DNA of 20,000 bases from positions 734,967 to 754,966 of the forward strand of contig OZ237768.1 of the NCBI GenBank assembly GCA_965178125.1. Reading direction: 5' to 3'. This DNA is from Bilabrum cf. latius. Its lineage: Eukaryota. Under the pieces are notes generated by a model. That model had not been told where the DNA came from and did no database searches. It saw only the letters and a program-made list of their open reading frames with translations. The position numbers were made by a program, and so were the translations under genes. Within the stretch, counting starts at the first letter, position 1. The number at the start of each line of letters is the position of its first letter. Shown piece after piece: positions 1 to 19,072 of the stretch.

Positions 1-2068
1 GCGATTCTGGCCTAGGGCGTTGGCTGCCACGCGGGTGCACTTTCGCGCTTTTCGCACGTGCATCTACGGGGATTCCCAATCGAGCGTCCACCACCCCCCT
101 CCAGTCCTGCAATTCTTGCCCTGCAGCCCCAGCCAACTGTGATGGTGGTGATGCTGCAGTGGCGGCTGACCGAGACTGCGATGCATCACCCCCGTCCTAC
201 TTCCGAGAGGCACTTCCCGGTGCCCCAGAGCGGTAGTGGTTCCGTGTTAGCTCACGTACCACCCCCACAGCTCCCGGTGCCCCAGCACCCACCATCAGCC
301 GCCGCACCTCTCTTGACCCCCCTCCCCCTGTCTGTCCCTTGCCAAGCGCCTCCAGCACAGCCCGCACCCCCACCTCACCGCGGAGCGTAATCCGTCCTGC
401 TGTGCCCGCAGAGCCCCGCACCGCCCCAGCAGGCCCAGCCCCGAGAGCATCGGCCCAGCAGCCCAGGGACCACTCCCGCGCGATGTGCTCGCCTCCCCCC
501 TCCGCACCTATGTGCGCCCCGTCCGACCCCAGCCCATCTGCATGCCCCGCGACGGCCTCATAGTCACCCTCTGCCCCCAGCAGGCTCTCCATGGCCATCT
601 GCACGCCTGCCAGCGCGTCCCCCCACAGATCTTCGTAGTGGTGCAGGTGCGCCCGAACTCGCAGCAACTGCCCAGCCTGTCTTGCCAGCGCCCCCAAACA
701 AGGACCCATCCCGGCGTTGTTCCACAGAGCCACCGTCGATGGGCCCCCACTAGCCCCTGGCACAGAGCACAGCGCAGTCTTGACGGCCTTGCCCCCGCTG
801 CAGTACCACGGCATGCGCACGTGGCCGGCCGCGCGCCAGTCCTGCACGCATCTTTGCAGATCCCCAGAGGATACGCTGAACGATGGCACGGGTACGGACC
901 GCCGTGACCTGCTGCCAGCAGCCAGCCCCCGGCCTCCCGCCGCTGCCGCTGCCTCTGGCGCGCTCCTGGCCAGCAGGGCGAGGGCGAGGGTCCCACGGGC
1001 TCGGGGGTCCGTCTCAATCCCGTGCTGGGAGGGGTGCGCCGCCGCCCGCAACATCTCAGCGGCCGCACGAGGCATCGACCTGTCCCTGACCCGGGGCCGG
1101 GCGCCGGCCCCGGCCCCGGCCCCGGCCCCAGCTGCCTACACCTACTTGCCCCGCTGCCCGACGTCCCCCACGAACGGACTGACCGAGCAGGACGCGAAGG
1201 GGAGAGAGGGTAGTGGGACCAGGTTGGTCGGTAACTCGCCCAGGTCCAGGTGCAGGGGGCCTCCAAACCGTGAGCCAGCCGCGATGTCCACCAGGGCCTG
1301 GGCTGCCACCCGGTTGGCGGTCTCGAAGGCAGTCAGAGCTTTTGACTTGCCGGCAGGGCGGGGCTCCTCCGCTGCAGAGAGGTCCGTGCCGCCCGCAATC
1401 GTGTTCATGGCAGCATTTGTGAACGGAATCACGAGTGACGCGTGCTGCTGCAGCTGCTCCAAGGCCAGCACGGCATTGTATGGGGCGGTGACCACATCGC
1501 TGTCATGTGCGCAGCTCGCCCGACTCGGTGGAGCAAAACTGTCCGGGGCTACAACAGCAGCTATCCTGTCTATATCGGAAAATGCGTCGGCGCACTGCGC
1601 CAGCAAGCGAGTTCCCAGTCCAGAACCAGTCCCGCCGCTCAGCGAATGCAAGAAAAGCAGGTTGCCCGGACTGTCACACGACTCCAGGGATCGCCTGACT
1701 TGGCCTTCTAAACTTGAGCCATGAACAGACCAGTGCTCGAAGTGGCCATGAGCCCAGTTGTTCCCGGATCCGGGCGAGTCCTTAACCAAAGAGCAATGCT
1801 AAAACAAAGGAGCGTGCTTGCCTTTCAAAAGTTGGGCAAGCACTCCTTCCTCCATGTCTACCAAAACAGCCCTTGCGCGTAAGTGCCGGAGAGATAGTCC
1901 GCCTGCATTTGTATCAGGTGCGTGCGACTCGATCTCGAAGAAGGGAGAGAGGTGCTACAAGCTTGCTGATGTTGCGGCGCTTCGCTCAGCCAAGAGCTCG
2001 TTCCAAAACTGCCAGCCAATTTGATTGCCGCACTGCCCTACCTGCACGACAACTGTTTCTCTAGGCAT
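1..2068 (-). CDS. TUBE1: Epsilon-tubulin, divergent, with low-complexity insertions and a long C-terminal extension; 3' end runs off the window; 5 in-frame TAG
   Basis: ATG at 2068 gives [22 protein letters not shown]...[15 protein letters not shown]...[10 protein letters not shown]...[13 protein letters not shown]...[13 protein letters not shown]...LPTNLVP...RAHLHHY. ARAVLxDMEEGV, GSGNNWAxGH and AHLHHY are epsilon-type. ORF-track pieces 1142..1789 and 197..1075 share this frame, joined across TAG at 1955-57, 1799-1801, 1142-44, 1136-38 and 197-99. No TAA/TGA occurs in frame down to base 2. Confidence 0.9.
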
Positions 2069-2384
2069 TACATCAATATTCCGTTAACAGCGCTGACATG
2101 GTTTTGACCCGCACGTAGCTGCTAACGAATGATGATGCCGGCCCGGCGAGACTGTGCAGAAGTAGGTTCCGCCGCGGCTGTGTGTTGGCGTGAACACGTG
2201 GGAAACTGGCGGGCAGCAGTAAAGGTAACTGCAGGGCATTTTGGAGCAATACTTGCGACACGTGGGCGTTGCACCGGTGGGTTCTGCCTTCGGACGGTGC
2301 GAACTGCTCCAAATTCCCGAGTCCGTCCACAAAGGCTGTAAGCCTTCCCGCTGCACAACGCAGACCCACAGCCCCTTCAGCCCC

Positions 2385-5090
2385 TCAGCCGCACCCGGAA
2401 CATAGGCCTGGCACGCACCCGGCGCAAGTCAGCGGGTGCAGCCCGCTGGCCTTCGCCACGGCCACTCCGATGGCTGTGGTGCCCTCTCCCAGCACAAACC
2501 CGGTTGCAACCAGCAGGCCCTGGATGCCCTCCAGCCCGCCGGTCGGGCTGTGTCCTGCAGACTCAGGACAGCCACAGGGGGCAGCACAAGGGGCCAGCCA
2601 TCCCCTCCTCCACGCCTCCATGGCCAGTGCGCCCAGCACGCGCGGCAGCACAAACGAGGGCGATATGTACATGCCCACGGCCACTGCCATGAGGGACGGA
2701 CGCACAGACACCAGCCACAGGGGACATCGGCACCGTCCAGGGGCACCCAACGAGCTAGTCGCGCCTGCTGCTCCTCCCAGCTCCACCTCGGCCGGCATCA
2801 GGGGGCTGGAGGCATCCTCGGCTGTGCCTCGCCTGCCTCGCCTACCTCGCCCCTCCACACCAGCAGCTGCTAGGCCATGTGCCCCTGACTCCTCCCCCGA
2901 GTCATCCAATTCGTCTCCTGGGGTCACCTGCGCCCTATGCTCAGCACTTGCCCTGCCAATCCCGCTGTCGCCCGAATCAGCAGCCTCGGTGTCGCATGCC
3001 AGCATCTGCACGAGCGCGATCACCATGGACAGCCCAGCGCCGATGCCCGCAAACAGAGGCGCATTGGCGGGCAGCGGCTCTCCTCCTGCCAGTCGAGCCA
3101 TGTCCAACCACACCTAGGCAGTTGGGACCTGCAGGGTGGGGCCCCCCAGCGTATAGGCCGCCGTAAACAGCTGGTAAGCCCCCACAGTGGCGACGACTCC
3201 CACTAGAGAGCCCACTAGCTGGGCCCACAGCTGGGAAATGGGGAATGCGCCCAGCAGGTAGCCTGTCTTGAGGTCCTGCATGAGGTCCCCGGCCTGCTGT
3301 GCGCCTGCCTCGGCCACAGCCCCCGCCAGCAGATTGGACACGATCCGGCCCGGGGCCATGCACGCGAATGCAGCCTGCGCGATCTTACCCACCCCCGAGA
3401 CCGGGTTGAGGTCAGTTTCTCCCAGGGCTCGCACTGCGATGACTGCCACCACGACGCACAGCAGCAGGGCCACAAGCGGCTCCCAGACAGGCACCTTGAA
3501 GACGAGAGGGACCACCAGGGCGCACAGGGCAGAGGACAGGAGCAGCCCAGGGACCCACAGGCACATGGGGATGTCGCCTCGAGATGATGATGACGTGCTG
3601 CCCAGCGTGCCACCCGCTGCGCTGGCAGTTTCTTGTTTGGCCCTGCAGCACACTATGCCATACCGCAGCACGGTGCTTCCCAGCGTCACCACGCTCTCGC
3701 CCAGCATAATGCCCAGAGAAACCCACACCACCCATCCCTTGGCCCCATCCGTCCAGCTTGATACAGGTCCCGGCGCCCACCCCATCCGCATGGCCAATGG
3801 AGCCAGGATGCCCCATGCTAGGAGGGCGCCCACACCCATGCTGAGGGCAGGCCGCAGACCCATTATCATGCCCTGCCCCACGTAGGAGAGCGAAGGGGAC
3901 ACGTACCAGCCCAGCTGAGTGGCCTAAAGCGGAGCCCCCAGCCAGTGCAGCACGGGCATTGCCCCTGCCACTGGGACAAGTGCGCCCAGCACAGTCACCC
4001 CGGACGCAGCGGCGCAGGCCTTGCACATGGGGCCCAGTGGGGGAACTGCTGATTCGCCTGATTCGCGAGAGTGCGAGCCCTGCGGATCTTGCCGAGGGCC
4101 TGCATCTATCTCCATCTGGGCCTGATGATGGGGGTCATTGGGTGCTCTAGCAGCAGCAATAGTCTTTCCCGGGGCTGCTGCAGGAAGCACGTGCGCATCC
4201 GGTGCACCGGAGGGCCGAGCGTCCGCTCCCGAGTCCGGTATGGCAGGAACTAGGCAGGAATGCGTCCCCTCCGCCCGTGCTAGTGCCCCTGTCTCCCCGT
4301 GTAGTGCCCCGATTACAACAGCCGTGGCTGTGCCGGACGGAAATTTCAGTTTCTGCACCTCAATGGCATCCCTGCGAAGAGGGACTGCCAAGAATACCCC
4401 AAAGAAGGCCAGGGCAGCGCACCATCCAAGCTGCTGGGCCCATGATAGAGTCACGCCCTCCTCCGATGAACTATCCTATTCATAATGCACATGCGCGGCC
4501 ATTGCCACAGTCGCATTCAATCGGCCTGGCCCATCCACGGCACAAGTTGACTGCAATGCTACTACCCCCGCACGAGTGTCTTCAATTTCTAGTTCATTGT
4601 GCCCCAGCAGAGTCAGAGCTGGAATAATCCCTACAAACCCTCCGGCAAGCGGCATTGTGCCGGCTGCGACCGCAGTTGTTTGCAGGGCAACGTTCTCCAA
4701 AGGCGTGAACCCACTCGCCCAAGACATAGCAGCGACGCAGCAACACTTTGCAAACACGCTCTACTTTGGTGATTTCGCGTGGGGCCTTGATTTGTCTCTT
4801 GAGCTCGCCAATAACGACGAGTCCTCTTCATCGACCTACTACTCTGTTTTATTACTTTCTGGTCGTGCCGAAATGGTGTGTGACTCGTTTGAACTTGGAG
4901 AGACTTTGCAAATTGCATCAACAGAACGAAGCACTCCGAAACCGAGAACAGCTGCTTGAACAGAGGCCATGGTGATCCAACCAGTCTGCAGCCCAAAATA
5001 CATGTTGCTACAACACAAAATTACCCCAATTATCGATCCAACAAATAATGCCCGACATGATGCCTGTGGTTCGCTATCTGCAGACATCAT
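2385..5090 (-). CDS. OPT superfamily (YSL/YGL114W-like) oligopeptide/metal-chelate transporter, about 901 aa; 6 in-frame TAG
   Basis: Five ORF-track fragments (4839..5174, 4476..4757, 3924..4454, 3114..3902, 2385..3113) share one frame, separated only by TAG at 4839, 4836, 4761, 4476, 3924 and 3114. Motifs: NMYFGLQTGW, FTPLENVALQT, LKFPSGTATA, SYVGQGMIMG, RALGETDLNPVSGVGK, QAGDLMQDLKTGYLLGA, ATGFVLGEG. Ends at TGA 2385-87. Start is ATG 5090 or 5087. Confidence 0.9.
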
Positions 5091-5239
5091 GCTGCACAGT
5101 AAAACTGGAAAATCGTTGCTCTTGGCAGGCTCCGAGTTCGTTCTCTCTCTCGCAGAAAATTGAATGTGCTCCACATTCTAAACATCCAAACACACAGCTT
5201 GGTTCGCAACATTTGCTTACCTGATGCAACGATAAAGTG
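5091..5239. promoter_or_regulatory. Probable bidirectional promoter region (149 bp) between divergent OPT and GPN2 genes
   Basis: Inferred only from the head-to-head gene geometry and lower GC. No specific motif identified. Confidence 0.4.
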
Positions 5240-6448
5240 ATGAGTATTCACGGATAGGTCGTCGTTGGACCCCCGGGGTCGGGCAAGACAACGCACTGTA
5301 GAGCAATGAAATCCATCTTGGCTGCTTTCGGACGAAGGCCAATTCTTGTCAATCTTGACCCTGCAAACGATGCTAGCATCCGAGCTCACGTAGTGGCAAG
5401 TGCGACGTAGGGGGGTGATTATCCTGCATCAGAGTCAGACAAGCAGCTGTTTGATATCGACGTGCGGGAACTCGTTGCATTGGAGGATGTAATGGAGGCA
5501 ACAGGGCTTGGGCCGAATGGGGGCCTTGTTTATTGTCTCGATCTAGTGCTCAAAAACGTTGGGTGGCTATCTAAGCAGCTTGCGGCTGCCATCGAAGACC
5601 GAGAAACAGAGCTGGGTGAGCTGCAGCCTTACCTGGTGTTTGATTGCCCGGGGCAGGTTGAGGTGTACACGCACGGGACTCAGATTAAGAATGTATTAGA
5701 TCATTTGCAGCGAGAGAGTGATCTGCGCCTGTGTGGCGTGCACTTGGTGGATGCGTCGCATTGCTCTGATGCCTCCAAATTCCTGTCTTGCACCATGCTG
5801 TCGCTGAGCGCCATGACGCGCATGGAGATGCCATGGGTGAACGTCCTCTCCAAAATCGACACATTTTCGGCGTTTGGAGCGCCCCCGCTGGGCCTGGACG
5901 CGTACACAGATGGCTTAGACCTTGAGAGCGTGCTGGACTCGGCCGCTGGCCCAGGGATAGGCGGTGCGCCGGGACTTTCTCTTGCTGGTGATGGCGGTGA
6001 CGGTGACGATGATCGTGATGGTGCAGACAAAGTGCAGTGTGGCGAAGCAGGTAGCTTGATCTCCCACGATGCGCCGGCTGATGGTGGTTCTAGCTCTACA
6101 GGCGAAGCGCCCCCGGCACACTCAGGAACCAGTGGTGCTAGCTCTCCAGTAGCGCCACGCAGCCGGGCCTTCTTCAAGCGATGGCGCAGCCTGCACAGGG
6201 CCATGGTAGGCGTCATGGACAGTTATTCATTGGTAGGCTTCCTGCCCAGCACGGTCAAGGATGCCAGAGCCACCACCCGGCTGCTGCGGCGGTGCGACAA
6301 AGCCACCGGGTATGCCTTCGGAGCGCTGCACGCCACCACCGAGGCATCCGTGGCGGGCATGATCGACCGTGCTGACGTTGACAGCGACACTACTGCAAGA
6401 AGAGAGGCCGAGGAGGCCGCCATGGAGGCTCTCCTTGGTGTCATGTGA
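5240..6448 (+). CDS. GPN2: GPN-loop GTPase 2, 402 aa; 2 in-frame TAG
   Basis: ATG 5240 gives MSIHG(TAG)[14 protein letters not shown]...VNLDPAND, in frame with ORF 5462..6448 ([38 protein letters not shown]). GPPGSGKT and GPNGGL with DCPGQVE..TH fit GPN2. TAG at 5255-57 and 5408-10; ends TGA 6446-48. Confidence 0.93.
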
Positions 6449-6647
6449 CCCTTGGCCTCGATCGAATCCGGCTGAGTTGTTGCGTAGGTCTAGAACAGTC
6501 TCTACGACTCGGAGTCTGCCCCGGAACCAATCCATCCGTGGGCGATTGCATATCCAATTCAAATGGCCATGATTCGAATAATTGCACTGCAATGGTGAAC
6601 TTATATTTCCTGGCCTTATTAGTTTGTGCTCCCGGATCGAAAATATC

Positions 6648-9086
6648 ATGATTGCAGCTGCAGTCGTGAGTGAGAGCGGAAATATCCTCGGAGCATCCGA
6701 GCTGCAACTGAAACCGCACGCCCTCGCGTCGGTTCGCAGTACTAACCCTTGGTGGGGGCATGGAGTCAAGTTTGCGTGCGCAATGCTTAAGTTTAGCGGT
6801 GATCTGTCGCGACAACTCTCCTCGGGTACTCACGATGAGCAACAAGCCGGCAGCAAGCCGTTGTGTCGCAAGGCAAGAGCAGGCATTGAGTTCGACTCGT
6901 CTGCTTCAGCCATAGCTGAGGCTGTCACACTAATACATGATAGTACTGGTAGTGCTGTCGACGGAATCCATGAGGTCTTTGTGTGCACATTCGCGTGGCA
7001 TCGAGATGATCCAGAACTTGCGTGTTGGGTGCACGGTGCAGCTGAGGCCCTGTGCCGAGCCTTGTGCACTCTACTGCAGAGGAAGGTGCCTATCAACGAT
7101 ATTGTGGCAGTAATTGCATCGTCTGCCTCCAATGCAGAGGCTAGGGCGGCAAACGATGCCGGTTCGTACACTGCTCCAAAAACTGGCGGTCCAAAGGAAG
7201 ATACTGCCAGTGTGCTGCAGAATCAAGCCATCGGAGTATGGTTGACGCAGGTTGTTGGTTGCAGCATGGTCACTCCTTCTCGGATTCGCGTCATCCGCAC
7301 GTGCCGCGATCGCCACGGCAAGCCCATGCCAGTCAATGGTAGGGCAGGCCTTCCTCCTCGATCCCCCTTGCACGCGGGCGCCGCTGGCACCATGCCGAAG
7401 GGGACCTTGCTCGCTGCATCACAGACGAGGAAACGGAGTCAGGTGTATCGGCAGCTAGTGCAGGGCGCAGGCTGGGCCATAGACGCCGCCTCTCCAGGTG
7501 ATGCTCCACCGAGTGAGGCCTCCTTGTGGGTGCGGCGACTGGTGGAGGAGCTGCCTCCTGTGGCAGTGCCTGCCACCAGCAGGCAGGGAGGCGGGCATGA
7601 TAGGGCGGGTCACCATCAGAGTAAGGTCTTTCTGCTTGAGTAGACTCCGAGAGGTGCATCTCCTGCTGGTGCACGCCACGGACGAAGGAAGCCGCAAGTT
7701 TCGACACATGCAGTTCTGCATGCCGCCCAAAGGCAAGGCACAGGCCTGCACCCTGTCGTGGCCGGCTGGATGTTCCCATTTGTGCAGTAGCAGTACGTCC
7801 TCTGCATGCCATCGGGAGAAAAGCCTGCATCTGCTGGATTAAGGGCTGGATCGGTCCTCGTCGGGATTCGGCTGCTTGCAGACGGCACCGACATGGACCC
7901 GAAAGGCAGGAGGGCTTGCCTGCTGGCGGCCGTGGTACTGCAGGCAGGCCCACCAAGGGTCCAAGCAGGCACGTCTTTCACTGGTGCTGAACCTCTTGTG
8001 TCCTCAACCAATCATCGAGCGATGCCAGTAGGGTACCTGGGAGTTTCCCAGTGCGAGGTGACTGTGCGGGTGTCTGGTACTCGGCGCGAGTCAGTCCGAG
8101 GAGCCAGCGCCAGTACCAGCTGGCAGTGGGGAGATCCCACTTCATTCCAGCTGCCTTTTGGCCCTGAGACTGGCAGTGACAGCAAGACAGGCAGTGGCCG
8201 GGCAACCGGGCTGAAGGCAGAGAGGAGTCGACAGCGGGCGTGGGTGTCGGCTGTTGGGCGCCTAGTAGCCGCAGTAGGCTCACAGGATCCAGTGCTGAGC
8301 ATGCACGATAAGATCGTGGCTGCGTTGGGCAGGCCACTGCTGGTTACTGCACAGTCCGCACTAGCCATCGCTCGAGCAGCGGGGGACAGAGATTCCCCCG
8401 GGCTAGCCCAGTCGGCTGGTGGACGAGATTCGGATGCACCATCCGCGGCATCGACGGGCCAATTGCCACGATCAGCTGCAACCGCAGGCACCCCGATCCG
8501 CAAGATGCCCCGGGTGTCCCCGTTGCAGAGACGGATCAAAGGGGCAAATAGAGATGGCAGGTCGAGCACCGGAGGTGCCCCCGGCACTGACGAGAGAAGC
8601 CTGACTGAAGGGGGCTCCCGCATGTCGCATGGCAGCCAGCTAGACCACAGTTTTGTGGAGAGTGCAGTCGCAGCGATCGCCGAGCCCAGGGGGGATGTGT
8701 CCACTCCAGGCGTGGATTCTGCCCGCAAGGGTTCCTCACCGTCCGGACTGGTCCTCGCCGGGCTGGACAGCGCCCGCATGGACATGTCACTACTGGCTTC
8801 AGGGAGGCAGGGGGGGGGGCACGCAAGTGGGGCTGGTAACGAGGAGGAGGGGTCTACTGTGGAGGCGACCAGTGGCAGTGGCCCTGTGCAAGGCAGGGCT
8901 CTGGAAGATGAATTCGAGGCTGTTGCTGACAGTGCTGGGACACTTCCTGCAGCGGCAACCGGCAGTGCCACAGGGCCGCCATTGCCCGCAAATGAGGGCC
9001 CTAGACGGCCCCACAGAGGGGGGCGAAGGTACAGAGCAGTAAGGGGGGCTTGCACTGCCAGAGGAGGCGATCCAGTCTAGGGCTGA
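6648..9086 (+). CDS. Hypothetical protein, about 812 aa; 3 in-frame TAG
   Basis: ORFs 6582..7643 and 7806..9080 share a frame, joined over TAG 7641-43 and 7788-90. TAG 9078-80 is followed by GGC TGA (9084-86). First ATG is 6648. It fills the gap between GPN2 and the convergent PITH gene. No family recognised with confidence. Confidence 0.7.
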
Positions 9087-9151
9087 GAGCAGCCGAACAC
9101 GGTTGTCGCGAAAACACGATCATTTCCGGTATTTCATGAACAAAACTCAAC

Positions 9152-9877
9152 TCAACTTATGCCGTACTTTCCACCGAGGTCCTCTTTCGTCGCATCTGTA
9201 CATTTCTTGGAGCCGAGGACCTCATACACTGCTCCTCTCACAGGTCCGCGCTTGAGCTTCGTGTCAGTCCCGTAAATGCCAATGTACTGCACGTGGCAGC
9301 TCTCATCCTCCCCAAACGCTTTCCTAAAAAACAGCGTTAGATGGTACACGCTGTGGAATTTGCCAGGGCGGGTACTGTACCGCATGTCGCCCTTGCAGTC
9401 CTTAGCTAGGTCCAGGTCCTAATCTGCTTTGATGTCTTCAGCCAGCCCGAAATCCATGTCCTCCCTATTCACGAATACCCCGAGGTCACTTGGATGATTC
9501 TCACTGTCTGGTCCCCCGATGCTGATCGCATGAATTCTCACAGCAGTACGAAACGGTATGTGCACGATCATTTCTGGATCACAGTCGTCGCTTTCAAGCA
9601 CAGGTTCTGGGTTCATTCGCATGTCATACGGTTTAAACGGTGCCTTCGGGTCGCTGCCTGCTGCCTCATTCATACATCGAACATTATCAAGGTCAATGCT
9701 AGAGAGCAGAGATGAGTACGATGTGTCTGCGGTCTCCATTTCATCTTCTTCGCTTGAGCCCACTTCATCTGCTCGCCTCGGGGCGCCCCGAAGCCCGGTT
9801 CGCATGGTAAACCCCAACAATGTGCTACCACCTGGTCTCGAACCACCACCACTACTGTCTCCTCCGGCGGATGCCAT
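9152..9877 (-). CDS. PITHD1: PITH domain-containing protein (PITHD1-like), about 241 aa; 1 in-frame TAG
   Basis: SLLSSIDLDNVRCMNE...LESDDCDPEMIVHIPFRTAVRIHAISI...FVNREDMDF...KAD(TAG)DLDLAKDCKGDMRYSTRPGKFHSVYHLTLFF...FGEDESCHVQYIGIYG. ORFs 9419..9907 and 9152..9385 are in frame across TAG 9419-21; ends TGA 9152-54. First in-frame ATG is 9877. Confidence 0.88.
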
Positions 9878-10252
9878 GTTGCAGTCAAGACCGCCTGATG
9901 TGGCCACACTGCAACTGTTCGTGTTGGCAGCGGAACTGGAACCGGAGCCGTGCGCGGCGCCAGTCTCGCCCCACCGACTGCTTTCCTAGCAGTGCCAGGA
10001 TTCATGTAGTCCCACTTTGCTCTCGTATCTTTATAGCTTGCATTTTCATTGGCCGATACTTTGCCGTGAGGCCTATCATGCCCTTTTTCCGGTCTGACTC
10101 GATCGTTTTCTTGGTTATTTGCTTGTGTATCGTCGTTTGCCCCTGGGTTTGTTTGTTTTTGCAGTGATTCCATACCATTTCCGACCAAAGAATAGAACTA
10201 TGATTCTTGGTTTGATGAGCAAACGAGCCAAGCTGACGCCGACTTGAAGCAG

Positions 10253-12862
10253 ATGGCGTACAATTCCCGCTTTCCGGGATCTGCCTATGACCTGGTGCCG
10301 GCTGCTTCGAACGTCATAACTCAAGCACACATCAGTGTGTTTGACCGGAGAGTATATATCGGACCAAGCGCAAACGACCACACTTCGAGATGCGACTAGC
10401 CTGCGAAGAATTGGTTCAGTTCACAAAACGTCCTGGCTAGCACTGGGAGTAGCGTAGAATCCGTAGTGTTATGGGGGGCAGGTCCGCGGCTGGGTCTTGA
10501 TGCTCGGACGCAATGGGGTTGGGTCATGCGAGGCCCGGGAGGCAATGCATCGGTCGTGCAGCTGATCGCGGACCTGCATGAAAACCAGCCTGGCGTGCAG
10601 GTCCTGCTGGGCTACGTGGTGAGCTGGGCCCACTGTCCGCTCGTATCTTCCCAACCGCCTTTCGATGGCATGGCTTCATCGCTTTATCGTGCTCTTACCC
10701 CTTATCGACCGCAGCCCTGGGACAATGCCACGTTCGGCACGCAGACGCCGGCAACGCCAGATGAAGGTAGGACCAGCAGTAGCAAGGGGCTGGCAGCCTC
10801 TCTGTGCGGGGCCCTGCTTGACCTATTGGCCGAGTGGGGGGCGGATGGGGTGTATGGCCTGGGCGTGGGGACCTTCGACTCGTCCTGCCGAGAGCGGAAC
10901 GAGACGTTGTCCGGTATTCGTATCGGAGTGGACGCTTACGTGCTGCAAGGCGATGCACCCATGCAGGTGGACGGAGAGGGCTTGGCCCCTCTCTCGTATC
11001 AGTCCACATCTGCACTAGCCTGGGTAGACGGGGAGGTGCCCGATGCGGCGCAGGGTACAATGCACAGCTCATATCTGCTCGCTGAACGTTCAACTGCCAC
11101 ACCAGATCTGGATTCATCGTTTGCAGCCACGCAGCAAGTGCAGTATCCATGGCTGCGGTTCATGGAGCGAAGGCACCAGCCCTTGGTGGGCAGCGCTTTC
11201 TTCTCGCGCAGGACGTGGCAAGTGACCGCAGCTTTCCTGGCAGGTGGAGGCATGCAGGTGCGAGAAGAGGCGTGGGGCGCGATGCCCAATCCACTGCGAC
11301 CCAGGGACCGAGAAAGGGTGAGGAGGGCAGGTGTGATGCTGGCGCAGGTAAGGGATATCGCCCACGGGGCTTCACTCCGTATTTCGTAGGTACCGAGGCA
11401 TCCACAGGAACAGGCTGGGAGAGGAGTAGCCGCGCCCCCGGTGAATGGTACGCTACTGCCCTACTGGCCCGTGTTAGCCGGCGGCAACTCCACCGATGCA
11501 CTGGCCACTGCCGTCACTGGCCCGTGCCCCACTTCTCTTGGCTTCGACAGCGCCACTGAGGGGTTGTGTGCGCTGTGGCTCGTGGCAGGACCACCGAGTG
11601 AATCGCACGACGATGCTCCGGTGAGGGTCAGGCTTAATGCGTCCATCTGCTCTAGCGTGCAGGGCGGGGATTCTGGCGGAGCTGGCTGCGGCCTCGCCGT
11701 GAACCTCTACTCGGGGGCAAACGAAACGGTCAATCAGACTGGGGCGGCCCCCACGGACTGGACCATTGATGTCCACGTGCTACCGGGCGCATTTGCAGCG
11801 GTAGTTGGTGCACCAAGCAGCGGGGGGCTCGTGAAAGCAGCAGGCAAGAATGCCTAGAGCTTCATCAAGCCGCTGTCATCATTTGCAGACGTGTGGAATC
11901 AACCCATCGGCAGGCACGAACCAGTTTCTCCGTCGTAGCCTAGGTCCTCATCGCCGGCTGGAACTGTGCTGGTGCCAGGCAGCTTCTCTTTCCCGTTCCA
12001 GTCAAGGCTGCTGCTCCCACTTGAGTTTGCAGACGCACCAGACGCGATCGCTTCCGGGAACACGGGCTCTGAGGGCTTCAGCGGAGTGCAGTACCCATGG
12101 TCCTCCCGAAGGCGACCTGTCGCGAGCAAGACGCTGGCTGTCTCCCCGTTCTACGCAGACTAGCAGCTGGTGACCAACCGGTAGTTCTCCGCTTACCTTA
12201 GCCAATCACGGTTCTTGCCCAACTGCACTCGCAATTGGCTCGCGCACTGGGACAGATCTGATGTAACACCGGCGCAGTTGCGGGGGGGCAGCCATGCGCA
12301 AGGAAGCACGGCACCTGCTCCTTCCAAAGAAATCCTGGATCGGCCGGTGGTGTGGGTGAGCCGCGGCGATGCAGATGCGTTCTGCCGGTTCCAAGGGAAA
12401 AGGCTGCCGCGTGAGTGGGAGTGGGCGGCAATGGCTACGATGGATGGCAAAGGCAGGGTGGACTACAATGAGTTTCCCTGGGGGAACGACACGTGCTCAC
12501 CGGGAGACTCCAGGTGTGCGTCCAATGTGACAGATCCGGCACTCGGGCTGGCTGGTCCCTCTGAGGACGTCGGGAAGCACTTGACCGGGAATAGCCCTCT
12601 TGGAATCCAAGACCTCGTTGGGCTAGTGTGGCAGCATACAGATGCGATCTGTGATGCCTTCACGTGCAGCAGTGTTCTAAAAGGCGGATCCTAGTACCGG
12701 CCTGAAGTAATCGCAGGAAAGTACGCCAAATACGTGCGATCAGGCCCTCAATCGGTCTGGGCTGCCATGCTGCTGCCTCTGCTGGATGATGCGTCAGGGA
12801 GGTCGGCTTTCGTTGGATTCAGGTGTGTGGCCGATACACCGGCTTTCCAGTCGGAGGATTGA
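10253..12862 (+). CDS. Large protein with C-terminal FGE-sulfatase (SUMF1/C-type lectin-like fold) domain, at least 869 aa; 7 in-frame TAG; start uncertain
   Basis: ORFs 10466..11389, 11441..11857, 11966..12163 and 12215..12694 share one frame, joined over TAG at 10397, 11387, 11855, 11936, 12161, 12182 and 12692. FGE motifs: FYAD..LVTNR.F, PVVWVSRGDADAFC...KRLPREWEW, FPWGN, NSPLGIQDLVGLVWQ, VLKGGS, and VGFRCVAD after the last TAG. Ends TGA 12860-62. The frame is open back to 10070 (one more TAG at 10193). Confidence 0.85.
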
Positions 12863-13554
12863 TGGTGCCGAGGCCTCATTACTGCTTGGAAAAGTGCGCC
12901 CAAGGGTGCTTGCTTGTTGTCATTTGTCCGACCACGTGACTGACATTTTATCCTTTACGCTGAATTCGAATCCTGAGCGCGGGATGGCCAGTACCTAGGT
13001 ACGTATTCTTGGTAGCTGTGCTTGGACGTCAGGATCGAAGCGACAGGGAGCATAGATGAGCCAGCAGTCGAGGTGTGCGCAGACGGACAGGAGTTGGAAA
13101 GGAACAAGAGGGGGCACCGGCACAGGCGACGACAGTGCGGTGTCAATAGGGAGAACACAGCGGGAGGAAGGTGACCCTAGGTGCCAGGCACAAGGGAGGC
13201 GTGAGTGCCAGCGGGCTGCATGGCCAACAGCGCGCAGAGGGCCAACAGGCGGGAAGATGGATGGGTATCATGGCAGGTCGGCAAGGACCAGTGCATGCAA
13301 GCTGACAGGACAGAGCCAAGGTGGTGATGCGGGAGCAGCGCACACGAACCCTAATATTGGGAAATGACTGCAGATATAGTTAAATTAGTTATGTATCTTA
13401 GTCTAGACTCTAGAATCAAAGGATATGCTATAGCTGATCCGTAACCGTACGCTTGTCGTCCAAATATCATGCCTTCATTCCATTGGATGCCGCTATCGAC
13501 CCCCCTAATATCCGTATACGTCAGTGCCCCTACGGGTAGCCTAACCTAACCCGA

Positions 13555-13668
13555 ACATGCCACCACCCAATCACTCCCATCCAGGGCACGGACATGCCAC
13601 CCCCCAATCACTCCCATCCAGGGCACGGACATACCACCCCCCAATCACTCCCATCCAGGACACGGACA
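13555..13668 (+). repeat. Subtelomeric 37-bp tandem repeat, 3 copies plus 3 nt, next to the first telomeric tract
   Basis: ACATGCCACCMCCCAATCACTCCCATCCAGGGCACGG starts at 13555, 13592 and 13629, with only a few mismatches between copies. Confidence 0.93.
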
Positions 13669-13670
13669 GG

Positions 13671-14388
13671 TTAGGGGGGTTTAGGGTTAGGGTTAGGGTT
13701 AGGGTTAGGGTTAGGGTTAGGGTTAGGGTTAGGGTTAGGGTTAGGGTTAGGGTTAGGGTTAGGGTTAGGGTTAGGGTTAGGGTTAGGGTTAGGGTTAGGG
13801 TTAGGGTTAGGGTTAGGGTTAGGGTTAGGGTTAGGGTTAGGGTTAGGGTTAGGGTTAGGGTTAGGGTTAGGGTTAGGGTTAGGGTTAGGGTTAGGGTTAG
13901 GGTTAGGGTTAGGGTTAGGGTTAGGGTTAGGGTTAGGGTTAGGGTTAGGGTTAGGGTTAGGGTTAGGGTTAGGGTTAGGGTTAGGGTTAGGGTTAGGGTT
14001 AGGGTTAGGGTTAGGGTTAGGGTTAGGGTTAGGGTTAGGGTTAGGGTTAGGGTTAGGGTTAGGGTTAGGGTTAGGGTTAGGGTTAGGGTTAGGGTTAGGG
14101 TTAGGGTTAGGGTTAGGGTTAGGGTTAGGGTTAGGGTTAGGGTTAGGGTTAGGGTTAGGGTTAGGGTTAGGGTTAGGGTTAGGGTTAGGGTTAGGGTTAG
14201 GGTTAGGGTTAGGGTTAGGGTTAGGGTTAGGGTTAGGGTTAGGGTTAGGGTTAGGGTTAGGGTTAGGGTTAGGGTTAGGGTTAGGGTTAGGGTTAGGGTT
14301 AGGGTTAGGGTTAGGGTTAGGGTTAGGGTTAGGGTTAGGGTTAGGGTTAGGGTTAGGGTTAGGGTTAGGGTTAGGGTTAGGGTTAGGG
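13671..14388 (+). repeat. Telomeric repeat tract 1: irregular TTAGGGGGGT start, then 118 x TTAGGG
   Basis: Perfect TTAGGG from 13681 to 14388 (708 bp). Confidence 0.98.
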
Positions 14389-14445
14389 TATCTAATATAA
14401 AGTCAGGGACAGGGTCGGGGAAAAAATATTTTCATCTTCAAAATA

Positions 14446-15201
14446 TGTCGAATTTTCGCGGATTGAGATCTCGGCAACTACTGGTGATATGAAGATGATT
14501 CGAACGGCAATAGGACGGCCGTAGGGCACAACATGGGGCAAAATTTTGTCAGGTTCCGTTTAAGTCGCGCGGCGCCGATATTGGGGTTTGAAGGTTTTGG
14601 TGTCGAATTTTCGCGGATTGAGATCTCGGCAACTACTGGTGATATGAAGATGATTCGAACGGCAATAGGATGGCCGTAGGGCACAACATGGGGCAAAATT
14701 TTGTCAGGTTCCGTTTAAGTCGCGCGGCGCCGATATTGGGGTCTGAAGGTTTTGGTGTCGAATTTTCGCGGATTGAGATCTCGGCAACTACTGGTGATAT
14801 GAAGATGATTCGAACGGCAATAGGATGGCCGTAGGGCACAACATGGGGCAAAAGTTTGTCAGGTTCCGTTTAAGTCGCGCGGCGCCGATATTGGGGTTTG
14901 AAGGTTTTGGTGTCGAATTTTCGCGGATTGAGATCTCGGCAACTACTGGTGATATGAAGATGATTCGAACGGCAATAGGATGGCCGTAGGGCACAACATG
15001 GGGCAAAATTTTGTCAGGTTCCGTTTAAGTCGCGCGGCGCCGATATTGGGGTTTGAAGGTTTTGGTGTCGAATTTTCGCGGATTGAGATCTCGGCAACCA
15101 CGGCAGATATGAAGATGATTTAAACTGCATGTGGACGGGGCAGGGGCATAGCATGATTTATTTGTACCTCAGGTTCCGTTCCGGTCGTGCGGCATCGATA
15201 T
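14446..15201. repeat. 155-bp tandem array: 4 near-perfect units plus 1 degenerate partial unit
   Basis: TGTCGAATTTTCGCGGATTGAGATCTCGG recurs at 14446, 14601, 14756, 14911 and 15066; the last unit diverges after about 33 nt. Confidence 0.96.
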
Positions 15202-15455
15202 CTTTAAGTGATTGGGACATATCTGTATGATATGCATTTTTAAATGTAAGTAGTAGTATGGATGTGGTGGATACAATTATGTTGTTTGATTGCGTTGATA
15301 GCAGATATTCGTTGGCCTATAGTCAAGACTAAACAGAATGCCTCTTGGCTCCTACTATTATGTCCTAACGGGTCACTGGCTGGCACTTTGGCAAGCTCCT
15401 CTCACAAGCTGGCCCAGCTGCCACTGACCTCAATTGCCATCCGATTGGCTGCTTT

Positions 15456-16043
15456 TCACTCGTCATCGGAGGAGGGTTCCGCACCGACAGCTGCCAGGAG
15501 CGCCTCCACAGCGTCCACGGCCTCCGCATTGAGATCTCCTTCAGCCGTCTTCTCGAGGGCCGTCATCAGGTCTGCGAGCGTGCCAATTCCGTGGTCCCTC
15601 TCTTCAATTGTTTCCTCCACGTCCTCGACCATATCGTCGAGAGTCCGGCTGACGCCCAGCGCGGTGTCATCGCAGGCAGCGAGGATGCGGTCCAGCAGGT
15701 CCCGCTGCTAGTCGGTGAAGCCGTTGTCCTCCACTCCACCGTCGTTCTCAGCGTCGTCTTGCTGGTTCTGGGCCTCGTTCTCTTCTTCCTCATCCAGCTC
15801 GTCCCCATCCTCCTCGTCCTGCTGCACGAGCCCTATCGGAGCCTCATCCTCGTCCTCCTCTCCGGCTGCGTCTGCGTGGTACCGACCACCGATCTCCTCT
15901 TCATCTTCCTCAGAGTCCTGTCGAGGCAGTGATGCTGCTGCTCCACTCCTTGCGCCACTTGCTCCCCGCTTCTCCTGTTCAACGGCGTGGCGAGCTCCTC
16001 CGCCATAGCCCGGTTGGAGAACGGGCGATCGCTTGGGTTGCAT
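15456..16043 (-). CDS. Element-encoded acidic protein, 195 aa from ATG 16043; the frame is open upstream to the telomere junction, so probably the 3' part of a truncated gene
   Basis: ORF 15708..16043 reads through TAG 15708-10 into QRDLLDRILAACDDTALGVSRTLDDMVEDVEETIEERDHGIGTLADLMTALEKTAEGDLNAEAVDAVEALLAAVGAEPSSDDE and stops at TGA 15456-58. Upstream of the ATG the frame reads (TAG)ARTKAAGKSKSKSKGKAKSKGARSAEP(TAG)GRHAEAAPPAK. Confidence 0.65.
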
Positions 16044-16167
16044 CTTAGCCGGAGGCGCGGCTTCAGCGTGCCTGCCCTACGGCTCTGCCGATCGGGCACC
16101 CTTGCTCTTCGCCTTGCCCTTCGACTTGCTCTTCGACTTGCCCGCGGCCTTGGTCCTGGCCTAGGGG

Positions 16168-16170
<3 letters not shown>

Positions 16171-16199
<29 letters not shown>
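16171..16199 (+). repeat. G29 homopolymer at the element/telomere junction
   Basis: CTAGGGGTTA-G29-TTAGGG read directly. Confidence 0.9.
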
Positions 16200-16202
<3 letters not shown>

Positions 16203-17135
16203 GGGTTAGGGTTAGGGTTAGGGTTAGGGTTAGGGTTAGGGTTAGGGTTAGGGTTAGGGTTAGGGTTAGGGTTAGGGTTAGGGTTAGGGTTAGGGTTAGG
16301 GTTAGGGTTAGGGTTAGGGTTAGGGTTAGGGTTAGGGTTAGGGTTAGGGTTAGGGTTAGGGTTAGGGTTAGGGTTAGGGTTAGGGTTAGGGTTAGGGTTA
16401 GGGTTAGGGTTAGGGTTAGGGTTAGGGTTAGGGTTAGGGTTAGGGTTAGGGTTAGGGTTAGGGTTAGGGTTAGGGTTAGGGTTAGGGTTAGGGTTAGGGT
16501 TAGGGTTAGGGTTAGGGTTAGGGTTAGGGTTAGGGTTAGGGTTAGGGTTAGGGTTAGGGTTAGGGTTAGGGTTAGGGTTAGGGTTAGGGTTAGGGTTAGG
16601 GTTAGGGTTAGGGTTAGGGTTAGGGTTAGGGTTAGGGTTAGGGTTAGGGTTAGGGTTAGGGTTAGGGTTAGGGTTAGGGTTAGGGTTAGGGTTAGGGTTA
16701 GGGTTAGGGTTAGGGTTAGGGTTAGGGTTAGGGTTAGGGTTAGGGTTAGGGTTAGGGTTAGGGTTAGGGTTAGGGTTAGGGTTAGGGTTAGGGTTAGGGT
16801 TAGGGTTAGGGTTAGGGTTAGGGTTAGGGTTAGGGTTAGGGTTAGGGTTAGGGTTAGGGTTAGGGTTAGGGTTAGGGTTAGGGTTAGGGTTAGGGTTAGG
16901 GTTAGGGTTAGGGTTAGGGTTAGGGTTAGGGTTAGGGTTAGGGTTAGGGTTAGGGTTAGGGTTAGGGTTAGGGTTAGGGTTAGGGTTAGGGTTAGGGTTA
17001 GGGTTAGGGTTAGGGTTAGGGTTAGGGTTAGGGTTAGGGTTAGGGTTAGGGTTAGGGTTAGGGTTAGGGTTAGGGTTAGGGTTAGGGTTAGGGTTAGGGT
17101 TAGGGTTAGGGTTAGGGTTAGGGTTAGGGTTAGGG
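16200..17135 (+). repeat. Telomeric repeat tract 2: 156 x TTAGGG
   Basis: Perfect TTAGGG over 936 bp. Confidence 0.98.
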
Positions 17136-17192
17136 TATCTAATATAAAGTCAGGGACAGGGTCGGGGAAAAAATATTTTCATCTTCAAAATA

Positions 17193-18103
17193 TGTCGAAT
17201 TTTCGCGGATTGAGATCTCGGCAACTACTGGTGATATGAAGATGATTCGAACGGCAATAGGACGGCCGTAGGGCACAACATGGGGCAAAATTTTGTCAGG
17301 TTCCGTTTAAGTCGCGCGGCGCCGATATTGGGGTTTGAAGGTTTTGGTGTCGAATTTTCGCGGATTGAGATCTCGGCAACTACTGGTGATATGAAGATGA
17401 TTCGAACGGCAATAGGATGGCCGTAGGGCACAACATGGGGCAAAAGTTTGTCAGGGTCCGTTTAAGTCGCGCGGCGCCGATATTGGGGTTTGAAGGTTTT
17501 GGTGTCGAATTTTCGCGGATTGAGATCTCGGCAACTACTGGTGATATGAAGATGATGCGAACGGCAATAGGATGGCCGTAGGGCACAACATGGGGCAAAA
17601 GTTTGTCAGGGTCCGTTTAAGTCGCGCGGCGCCGATATTGGGGTTTGAAGGTTTTGGTGTCGAATTTTCGCGGATTGAGATCTCGGCAACTACTGGTGAT
17701 ATGAAGATGATGCGAACGGCAATAGGATGGCCGTAGGGCACAACATGGGGCAAAAGTTTGTCAGGTTCCGTTTAAGTCGCGCGGCGCCGATATTGGGGTT
17801 TGAAGGTTTTGGTGTCGAATTTTCGCGGATTGAGATCTCGGCAACTACTGGTGATATGAAGATGATTCGAACGGCAATAGGATGGCCGTAGGGCACAACA
17901 TGGGGCAAAATTTTGTCAGGTTCCGTTTAAGTCGCGCGGCGCCGATATTGGGGTTTGAAGGTTTTGGTGTCGAATTTTCGCGGATTGAGATCTCGGCAAC
18001 CACGGCAGATATGAAGATGATTTAAACTGCATGTGGACGGGGCAGGGGCATAGCATGATTTATTTGTACCTCAGGTTCCGTTCCGGTCGTGCGGCATCGA
18101 TAT
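17193..18103. repeat. 155-bp tandem array: 5 near-perfect units plus 1 degenerate partial unit
   Basis: Unit starts at 17193, 17348, 17503, 17658, 17813 and 17968 (degenerate). Confidence 0.96.
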
Positions 18104-18357
18104 CTTTAAGTGATTGGGACATATCTGTATGATATGCATTTTTAAATGTAAGTAGTAGTATGGATGTGGTGGATACAATTATGTTGTTTGATTGCGTTGA
18201 TAGCAGATATTCGTTGGCCTATAGTCAAGACTAAACAGAATGCCTCTTGGCTCCTACTATTATGTCCTAACGGGTCACTGGCTGGCACTTTGGCAAGCTC
18301 CTCTCACAAGCTGGCCCAGCTGCCACTGACCTCAATTGCCATCCGATTGGCTGCTTT

Positions 18358-18945
18358 TCACTCGTCATCGGAGGAGGGTTCCGCACCGACAGCTGCCAGG
18401 AGCGCCTCCACAGCGTCCACGGCCTCCGCATTGAGATCTCCTTCAGCCGTCTTCTCGAGGGCCGTCATCAGGTCTGCGAGCGTGCCAATTCCGTGGTCCC
18501 TCTCTTCAATTGTTTCCTCCACGTCCTCGACCATATCGTCGAGAGTCCGGCTGACGCCCAGCGCGGTGTCATCGCAGGCAGCGAGGATGCGGTCCAGCAG
18601 GTCCCGCTGCTAGTCGGTGAAGCCGTTGTCCTCCACTCCACCGTCGTTCTCAGCGTCGTCTTGCTGGTTCTGGGCCTCGTTCTCTTCTTCCTCATCCAGC
18701 TCGTCCCCATCCTCCTCGTCCTGCTGCACGAGCCCTATCGGAGCCTCATCCTCGTCCTCCTCTCCGGCTGCGTCTGCGTGGTACCGACCACCGATCTCCT
18801 CTTCATCTTCCTCAGAGTCCTGTCGAGGCAGTGATGCTGCTGCTCCACTCCTTGCGCCACTTGCTCCCCGCTTCTCCTGTTCAACGGCGTGGCGAGCTCC
18901 TCCGCCATAGCCCGGTTGGAGAACGGGCGATCGCTTGGGTTGCAT
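18358..18945 (-). CDS. Element-encoded acidic protein, second copy
   Basis: Matches 15456..16043 at offset 2902; internal TAG 18610-12, TGA 18358-60. Confidence 0.65.
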
Positions 18946-19069
18946 CTTAGCCGGAGGCGCGGCTTCAGCGTGCCTGCCCTACGGCTCTGCCGATCGGGCA
19001 CCCTTGCTCTTCGCCTTGCCCTTCGACTTGCTCTTCGACTTGCCCGCGGCCTTGGTCCTGGCCTAGGGG

Positions 19070-19072
<3 letters not shown>

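Follow-up and report, generated by a model that had tools for sequence, protein, structure and literature searches.

Evidence that UAG, but not UAA, encodes glutamine in the genes at a GC-rich nuclear chromosome end of Bilabrum cf. latius

Introduction

The stretch of DNA described here (the window) comprises 20,000 nucleotides of the Bilabrum cf. latius assembly GCA_965178125.1 (contig OZ237768.1, positions 734,967 to 754,966 of the forward strand). The window is the end of a eukaryotic nuclear chromosome, with 58% G+C overall and a gene-dense part at bases 1-13,100. Under the standard code the left part of the window yields gene fragments only; when TAG is read through, six long frames emerge, five of them with clear families in Pfam. 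The subject of this report is the genetic code of these genes. According to the original prediction, which was made from the nucleotide sequence, UAG is a sense codon for glutamine, UAA has been uncoupled from it, and every visible gene ends in TGA. Here we present the gene models, the codon counts, a comparison with transcript-like contigs and with a related metagenome contig, and alignments to homologues, which together indicate that UAG very probably encodes glutamine and that UAA is not a sense codon.

Genes of the window

TAG interrupts six supported genes and one putative open reading frame (ORF), and their full length is reached only with read-through. The six supported genes are as follows (window coordinates).

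2..2068, minus strand: epsilon-tubulin gene (Pfam Tubulin, E=6e-33; best named matches called tubulin epsilon); TAG at codons 38, 90, 309, 311 and 624 (1957-1955, 1801-1799, 1144-1142, 1138-1136 and 199-197)
2385..5090, minus strand: OPT oligopeptide transporter gene, 901 amino acids (Pfam OPT, E=9e-91); TGA at 2385-2387; in-frame TAG at codons 84, 85, 110, 205, 389 and 659
5240..6448, plus strand: GPN-loop GTPase 2 gene, 402 amino acids (Pfam ATP_bind_1, E=6.5e-52); TGA at 6446-6448; in-frame TAG at codons 6 (5255-5257) and 57 (5408-5410)
6648..9086, plus strand: gene of 812 amino acids, family unassigned (orthologue with 31% identity and the same gene order in the related contig L001); TAG at codons 332 (7641), 381 (7788) and 811 (9078)
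9152..9877, minus strand: PITH-domain gene, 241 amino acids from ATG 9877 (Pfam PITH, E=1.9e-44); TGA at 9152-9154; TAG at residue 153 (9421-9419)
10165..12862, plus strand: FGE-sulfatase-domain gene, with the domain C-terminal (Pfam FGE-sulfatase, E=2.9e-18); TGA end at 12860-12862
Parts of the FGE gene, plus strand: upstream exon to 10065, intron 10066-10164, exon 10165-10618, intron 10619-10714, exon 10715-12862

The epsilon-tubulin frame leaves the window at its 3' end, and its stop therefore lies beyond the window start and is not visible. The 812-amino-acid protein gave no match in Pfam. For the PITH gene the most likely start is ATG 9877 (contigs stop at 9889-9920), which places one of the 26 TAG codons of the first listing in the 5' leader. 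The FGE gene starts at ATG 10253 or possibly at 10004, with seven TAG codons downstream of ATG 10253, and its two introns have the ends GTGAGG…TTGCAG and GTGAGC…CCGCAG.

Codon counts and termini

The ORFs as first listed hold 4,161 codons with 26 TAG, 0 TAA, 37 CAA and 100 CAG. After refinement with transcript-like contigs and homology, the seven genes comprise 3,918 sense codons with 24 TAG, 0 TAA, 0 internal TGA, 34 CAA and 95 CAG, so that the predicted lack of in-frame TAA in about 3,900 codons, despite the use of CAA, is borne out. The three triplets are distributed over the frames as follows.

TAA: 0 in frame; 16 in off-frame 1; 15 in off-frame 2
TGA: 0 in frame; 52 in off-frame 1; 101 in off-frame 2
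TAG: 24 in frame; 47 in off-frame 1; 35 in off-frame 2

A further 29 TAA (both strands) occur in 1,792 intergenic bases. CAA makes up 26% of the CAR codons (CAA and CAG together) and TAA 0 of the 24 TAR codons, which has P=6.5e-4 if TAA:TAG tracked CAA:CAG. The other A-ending codons of the window account for 15-59% of their A/G pairs, and the G+C content at third codon positions (GC3) of the window genes is 0.57-0.68. (Note that TAA was treated as a stop when the ORFs were delimited, and the in-frame count of 0 TAA is thus partly given by construction.) The frames so delimited match both their homologues and the transcript-like contigs over the full length, and this agreement lends non-circular support to the absence of TAA.

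All visible termini are TGA, namely those of the OPT, GPN, 812-amino-acid, PITH and FGE genes and of an acidic ORF in the subtelomere. The six termini named in the original prediction were thus found to be TGA by position, with the acidic pair entering once: its copies lie in units that are 100% identical, and the two ends therefore represent one terminus. Together with the two complete genes of L001 (see below), the five supported genes and the one putative ORF of the window give 8 termini, all of them TGA, and internal in-frame TGA numbers 0 in 6,398 codons (window plus L001) vs 41-101 per off-frame. The predicted succession TAG GGC TGA is present at 9078-9086; for this TGA to be the terminus of the 812-amino-acid gene, translation must pass the TAG two codons before it.

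A related metagenome contig

L001 is the sole locus obtained from one scan of Joint Genome Institute (JGI) metagenome contigs with the GPN protein. It measures 8,725 bp at 52% GC, its GPN protein is 62% identical to that of the window, and its gene order is syntenic: OPT on the minus strand, followed by GPN and the 812-amino-acid homologue on the plus strand. In the place of epsilon-tubulin it carries, at 2-802, a mitochondrial-carrier-like gene with 5 TAG. The 2,480 codons of L001 (GC3 0.48) include 29 TAG, 0 TAA, 39 CAA and 45 CAG; CAA thus makes up 46% of CAR, and the probability that 29 of 29 TAR codons are TAG is P=1.4e-8. The off-frames contain 20 and 18 TAA, and both complete genes terminate in TGA. 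The recurrence of the pattern at this lower GC content removes GC bias as the cause of the missing TAA, and its presence in so distinct a relative makes it a property of a lineage rather than of one strain. Profile searches of genome contigs and viral contigs with GPN and OPT alignments found no further DNA of the lineage.

The window and L001 have no TAG site in common. When their genes are aligned, 30 TAG sites have a partner codon; CAG is the partner of 4 and CAA of 2, which makes glutamine the commonest residue, and the other 24 partners are spread over 17 codons.

TAG in transcript-like contigs

Thirteen public sequencing runs, none of them recorded as RNA, matched a 7.6-kb stretch. Contigs of four runs (X1, X5, X6 and X7; the small-share runs X8-X12, of which two bear the labels protist and algae metagenome and which carry no information on habitat, were left out) were aligned to window bases 1-13500, which cover the six supported genes; the acidic ORF lies outside this comparison. 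X5, X6 and X7 stem from two studies other than that of X1. X1 is DNA-like: a single 27-kb contig spans 1-13139 with both introns retained. The contigs of X5-X7 break at gene borders, as the following examples illustrate.

5185-6466, 5187-6591 and 5191-6502: GPN contigs
6568-9136: contig of the 812-amino-acid gene (X5)
9120-9920, 9117-9889 and 9171-9889: PITH contigs

A joint 10065>10165 is present in X5, X6 and X7, and a joint 10617>10714 (cut +1) in X5 and X7; both have GT..AG ends and neither occurs in X1. Another joint, 6007>10940, has sides of 22 bases and was taken as spurious. Contigs that remove GT..AG introns and break at gene borders carry spliced message. At each of the 25 TAG sites in the six genes the X5 contigs show 0 other letters and 0 gaps, and the X5 contig 480-5092 covers the OPT gene with 0 differences. 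X1, X6 and X7 likewise have 0 other letters at the TAG sites; cover by X6 and X7 is thin or lacking over 6750-9000. As the spliced contigs keep every TAG, the in-frame TAG codons are neither intronic nor edited away.

What UAG encodes

The genes were aligned blind, with TAG entered as X, to 118-120 homologues each. Codon 6 of the window GPN gene faces glutamine in 117/118 homologues and codon 131 of the L001 GPN gene in 118/118, and in the L001 OPT gene codons 683 and 705 face glutamine in 107/120 and 120/120, respectively. At the position of the PITH TAG, human TXNL1 has Q and At3g04780 has D. The alignments contain 28 TAG codons, 15 of them in columns where at least 80% of the homologues have a residue, and 4 of these 15 are in columns with a majority of glutamine, vs 15 of 2,117 other codons (p=5.8e-6) and vs 25 of 64 CAA/CAG codons (Fisher p=0.55). 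Where one residue is found in at least 90% of the homologues, the TAG column shows glutamine three times and lysine once. In database fragments from a relative that is 92-93% identical (P0361, P0362), TAG codons of the FGE gene stand opposite Q twice and E once; one relative fragment ends right before a window TAG and another at window Gln-560 (exon-3 numbering).

The conserved-column statistics and the exchange of TAG with CAG/CAA between orthologues agree with the prediction that UAG is sense and means glutamine. As judged from these alignments, TAG behaves as a third glutamine codon, freely exchanged with CAG and CAA in evolution, and the TAG sites that face other residues represent the same scatter as is seen at ordinary glutamine codons.

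Alternative explanations

Four other explanations of the data were weighed. An ordinary code in which both UAA and UAG (UAR) mean glutamine, with TAA merely too rare here through GC richness, would fit the composition of the window (GC3 0.57-0.68, fewer A-ending codons) and the uniform TGA termini, as expected where UGA is the sole stop. Yet TAA accounts for 0 of 53 TAR codons although CAA makes up 26% (window) and 46% (L001) of CAR, A-ending codons otherwise reach 15-59% of their A/G pairs, and TAA occurs often both in the off-frames and in the intergenic bases. The frequent in-frame TAA at glutamine positions that such a code should produce was not seen in 6,398 codons, and we regard this explanation as very improbable. 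Scarcely credible is the idea that the in-frame TAG codons are artefacts of unspliced introns, pseudogenes, assembly errors or RNA editing to CAG: nothing speaks for it beyond the prior rarity of code changes, whereas X5-X7 and X1 agree at every TAG while X5-X7 remove two real introns, the open frames of 240-900 codons align with homologues over their whole length, and in the 62%-identical relative the TAG codons stand at other sites.

The code might also be ambiguous, with UAG read as glutamine internally and as a stop near mRNA 3' ends (Condylostoma-type or karyorelict), in which case the 812-amino-acid gene might end at its TAG. This gene does have a TAG two codons before TGA, at which point L001 is cut, and contigs end only 18-143 bases past the TGA of GPN, 50 past that of the 812-amino-acid gene and about 32-35 past that of PITH. 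Contig ends, however, are imprecise mRNA ends; in OPT, GPN, PITH and FGE (4 of 5 supported complete genes) the last TAG lies far upstream of a C-terminus that is confirmed by homologues or the L001 orthologue, and TAG is found at 0 of 7 supported termini, so that an ambiguous code is improbable. A sense UAG with another meaning (Glu, Lys, Tyr, Leu or Ser) would have parallels among split codes, since the available passages of the literature report UAG=Leu in the rhizarian exLh, UAG=Ser in Scotinosphaera and UAG=Glu in one ciliate. Single TAG sites with K (108/120), D (100/119), Y/F or L majorities could be cited in its favor, as could OPT codon 659 (K in 46/120, Q in 38/120). Against it stand the columns with at least 90% agreement (3 Q, 1 K), an enrichment in Q-majority columns that matches that of CAA/CAG codons, and the fact that the commonest orthologous partners, CAG and CAA, are one transition from TAG; another residue is thus highly improbable.

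The genetic code and its proposed mechanism

We therefore return to a code in which UAG encodes glutamine and UAA is not sense. The second part of this reading, also contained in the original prediction, is upheld by the exclusion of UAA from the frames both in the window and in the lower-GC L001. Several observations weigh against the reading as a whole. No gene was seen to end in TAA (0/8 termini); the sample of 8 termini is too small to establish that UAA never terminates and includes two orthologous pairs that are partly dependent, the OPT genes of the window and L001, for instance, stopping at the same aligned place. Thirteen of the 28 aligned TAG codons lie in lineage-specific inserts, where their meaning is unreadable. 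Among the readable sites, L001 OPT codon 303 is K in 108/120, tubulin codon 90 is D in 100/119, tubulin codon 38 is Y/F, OPT codon 389 is F/V, and FGE residue 381 is L in 67/89. Run X5 is labelled 'probably DNA', and RNA is a guess for X6 and X7. Finally, neither a tRNA-Gln(CUA) nor any true tRNA gene was found in the window or L001 with ARAGORN and Rfam, and eRF1 is encoded neither in the 20 kb window nor in L001.

Under this reading UAG is left unedited in mature mRNA and decoded like CAG or CAA, UAA is kept out of the reading frames, and UGA, likewise absent from the frames, is the stop of every gene with a visible end. By pure inference, the following mechanism may be proposed. A tRNA-Gln with anticodon CUA, one base from the normal CUG, would pair with UAG and not with UAA, and an eRF1 without efficient recognition of UAG would keep that of UGA and probably of UAA. 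According to passages of PMC5304391 and PMC11687900, UAG is decoded by anticodon CUA and UAA is not, whereas UUA would decode the two codons alike; UAG can thus be captured without UAA. A variant in which UGA is the only termination codon, with UAA unassigned and avoided, is considered rather unlikely; it would represent a state between a UAR=Gln and a UAG-only code, on the way in or out. If true, a code with unassigned UAA would differ from every published UAG-only code, in which UAA is the main stop, and would sit in a deep, fast-evolving eukaryotic lineage without a described code change.

Source organism and its relatives

The source organism is a fast-evolving, GC-rich, intron-poor eukaryote. 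Ciliate telomeres are of the G4T2/G4T4 type. The TTAGGG arrays of the window, and the absence of ciliates from the named best matches, accord with the earlier view that the organism is not a ciliate. The best named matches of GPN2 and OPT are to early fungi, animals and amoebozoans, and epsilon-tubulin has matches of the same low strength in fish, streptophyte algae and stramenopiles (30-43% identity). In trees built from hand-picked rows (37 for GPN2 and 31 for epsilon-tubulin, of 120 matches each), the stem of the lineage measures 1.39 changes per site for GPN2 and 3.45 for epsilon-tubulin, with no supported sister. An independent origin of the code may be plausible, but these single-gene trees leave the lineage on a very long branch with no supported position. 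The aphelid Amoeboaphelidium, whose code is given as UAR=Gln in passages of PMC5304391 and PMC6299283, was considered as the source and rejected: its genomes, at about 40% GC, come with annotated proteins at NCBI (PMC10608142, Table 1), and these proteins are absent among the named matches.

At least three further forms of the lineage are present in public data, represented by P0001/P0241/P0361 (91-93% identity), P0002 (69%) and L001 (62%). In run X1, 52 of 58 aligned contigs agree with the window to only 90-99%. These contigs, together with the database proteins of 91-93% identity for three window genes, suggest that the same material contains a second diverged haplotype, a subgenome or a sister strain.

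Further features of the window

Leaders and trailers are very short, which makes the genome extremely compact. In divergent gene pairs the gaps between contigs are only about 90 bases (5093-5184), and at the 3' ends of the convergent 812-amino-acid and PITH genes the contigs share about 20 bases (9117-9136). Going upstream, the first in-frame TAA codons are met within the leaders, at 6 to 53 codons from the ATG. At its C-terminus the epsilon-tubulin protein is extended by more than 160 residues, rich in Gly and Ala (2-493), and the frame of this extension is kept in P0241. This 301-amino-acid fragment of a close relative matches tubulin residues 394-689, a span in which the identity is 83%; its gaps (4, 1 and 13 residues) are all in frame, and the fragment extends further. 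A tubulin stop created at a poly(A) site near 464-480 was considered and dropped, as the frame of P0241 is open through the extension. Within the OPT coding region ARAGORN called a tRNA-Ser(GCU) of 91 bases at 4014-4104 on the plus strand, which is probably a false call, with no tRNA found there by Rfam.

In the FGE gene, the frame with intron 10066-10164 removed is open upstream to ATG 10004. A start at this ATG would yield a hydrophobic, signal-peptide-like N-terminus with two extra TAG codons, plus the TAG at 10193; such an N-terminus would suit a protein that is, like this one, rich in N-x-S/T sites. The start is unsure, however, as a contig begins at ATG 10004. The second intron, 10619-10714, has 96 bases and is in frame and stop-free, and the unspliced form would also be translatable.

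The remainder of the window is subtelomeric and contains the following features.

13681-14389, 16197-17136 and 19099-20000, plus strand: three TTAGGG arrays (Tandem Repeats Finder)
14446-15120 and 17193-18022: 155-bp satellites, between the TTAGGG arrays, with the acidic ORF and a G29 run
15456..16043, minus strand: putative acidic ORF of 195 amino acids (from the ORF list), TGA end, one TAG
18358-18945, minus strand: second, identical copy of the acidic ORF

According to Tandem Repeats Finder the TTAGGG arrays are perfect, with 118, 157 and 150 units, and the third reaches the window end. Just before the first array, at 13540-13680, a short inverted telomere motif (CCTAACCTAACCC) is found with three copies of a 37-bp repeat. 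The chromosome end at 13540-20000 is a tandem of units of about 2.9 kb, each with a TTAGGG array of 0.7-0.9 kb, 4-5 copies of the 155-bp satellite, the minus-strand acidic ORF, a set of 12/24-bp repeats and the G29 run. The two 1,076-bp subtelomeric units that bear the acidic ORF are 100% identical; for the ORF itself neither a Pfam match nor a homologue was found. At bases 13100-13250 the contig depth is 10- to 20-fold higher in all four runs, which indicates a multi-copy subtelomeric element. The interstitial telomere arrays, set between subtelomeric elements that are repeated, resemble the arrangement of yeast Y' elements. The tandem arrangement could alternatively be an effect of long-read assembly.

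Comparison with known codes

UAA and UAG almost always change meaning together, and a further case in which they are split therefore matters. In keeping with the prediction that split meanings are rare, the literature passages at hand name few nuclear exceptions: the rhizarian exLh, Iotanema, Scotinosphaera, Protocruzia, a few phyllopharyngeans and one oligohymenophorean. UAG-only glutamine codes are given there for Iotanema, Protocruzia tuzeti, Hartmannula sinica and Trochilia petrani (PMC5304391; PMC11687900). The full-text literature searched, which leaves most subscription journals outside, held no paper on a GC-rich non-ciliate organism with UAG=Gln besides Iotanema. The type of code is thus known, and the depositors of the 2025 assembly may already know that it applies here; what would be new is a non-ciliate, GC-rich case with UGA as the working stop, the first UAG-only case in which UGA, not UAA, carries termination. 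A non-ciliate with a chromosome-scale assembly and relatives of differing GC content would permit direct tests of how eRF1 and a CUA tRNA separate the two codons. Annotation under the standard code breaks nearly every gene of such a genome and of related metagenome contigs (cf. the fragments P0001, P0241, P0361 and P0362).

NCBI translation table 15 assigns TAG to glutamine and keeps TAA and TGA as stops. The window resembles it in that these assignments give full-length genes, but none of the 8 termini of window and L001 is TAA. The UAR=Gln codes of Tetrahymena-type ciliates, hexamitins, some ulvophytes, the oxymonad Streblomastix and, as reported, Amoeboaphelidium protococcarum are similar in the change from stop to glutamine and in the use of UGA as a stop, but differ in the treatment of UAA, as 0 TAA stand against 53 TAG in the 6,398 codons of window and L001, next to 73 CAA and 140 CAG.

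The closest counterpart outside the ciliates is Iotanema spirale (Fornicata), in which, according to the passages available, UAG alone has become a glutamine codon and UAA is not sense. Its predicted tRNA-Gln(CUA) and altered eRF1, with a change from GTS to GGS (PMC5304391; PMC9161772), correspond to the mechanism proposed here. Unlike Iotanema, in which UAA is the dominant stop and UGA is also used (UAA is likewise dominant in exLh, 56 of 71; PMC5304391), the present lineage shows 0 of 8 termini as TAA and all as TGA, and whereas PMC9161772 points to a mitosome-type organelle in the Iotanema lineage, L001 encodes a mitochondrial-carrier-like protein. In the ciliates Hartmannula sinica, Trochilia petrani and Protocruzia tuzeti, UAG likewise means glutamine and UAA stays outside sense positions (passages of PMC11687900). 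UAA is the preferred stop of these ciliates, and in phyllopharyngeans UGA is the least used (PMC11687900), whereas the window organism has TTAGGG telomeres, GC-rich genes and UGA termini. Termination at UGA thus bears on the argument, found in the same source, that UAA as a fixed preferred stop stabilises UAG-only codes.

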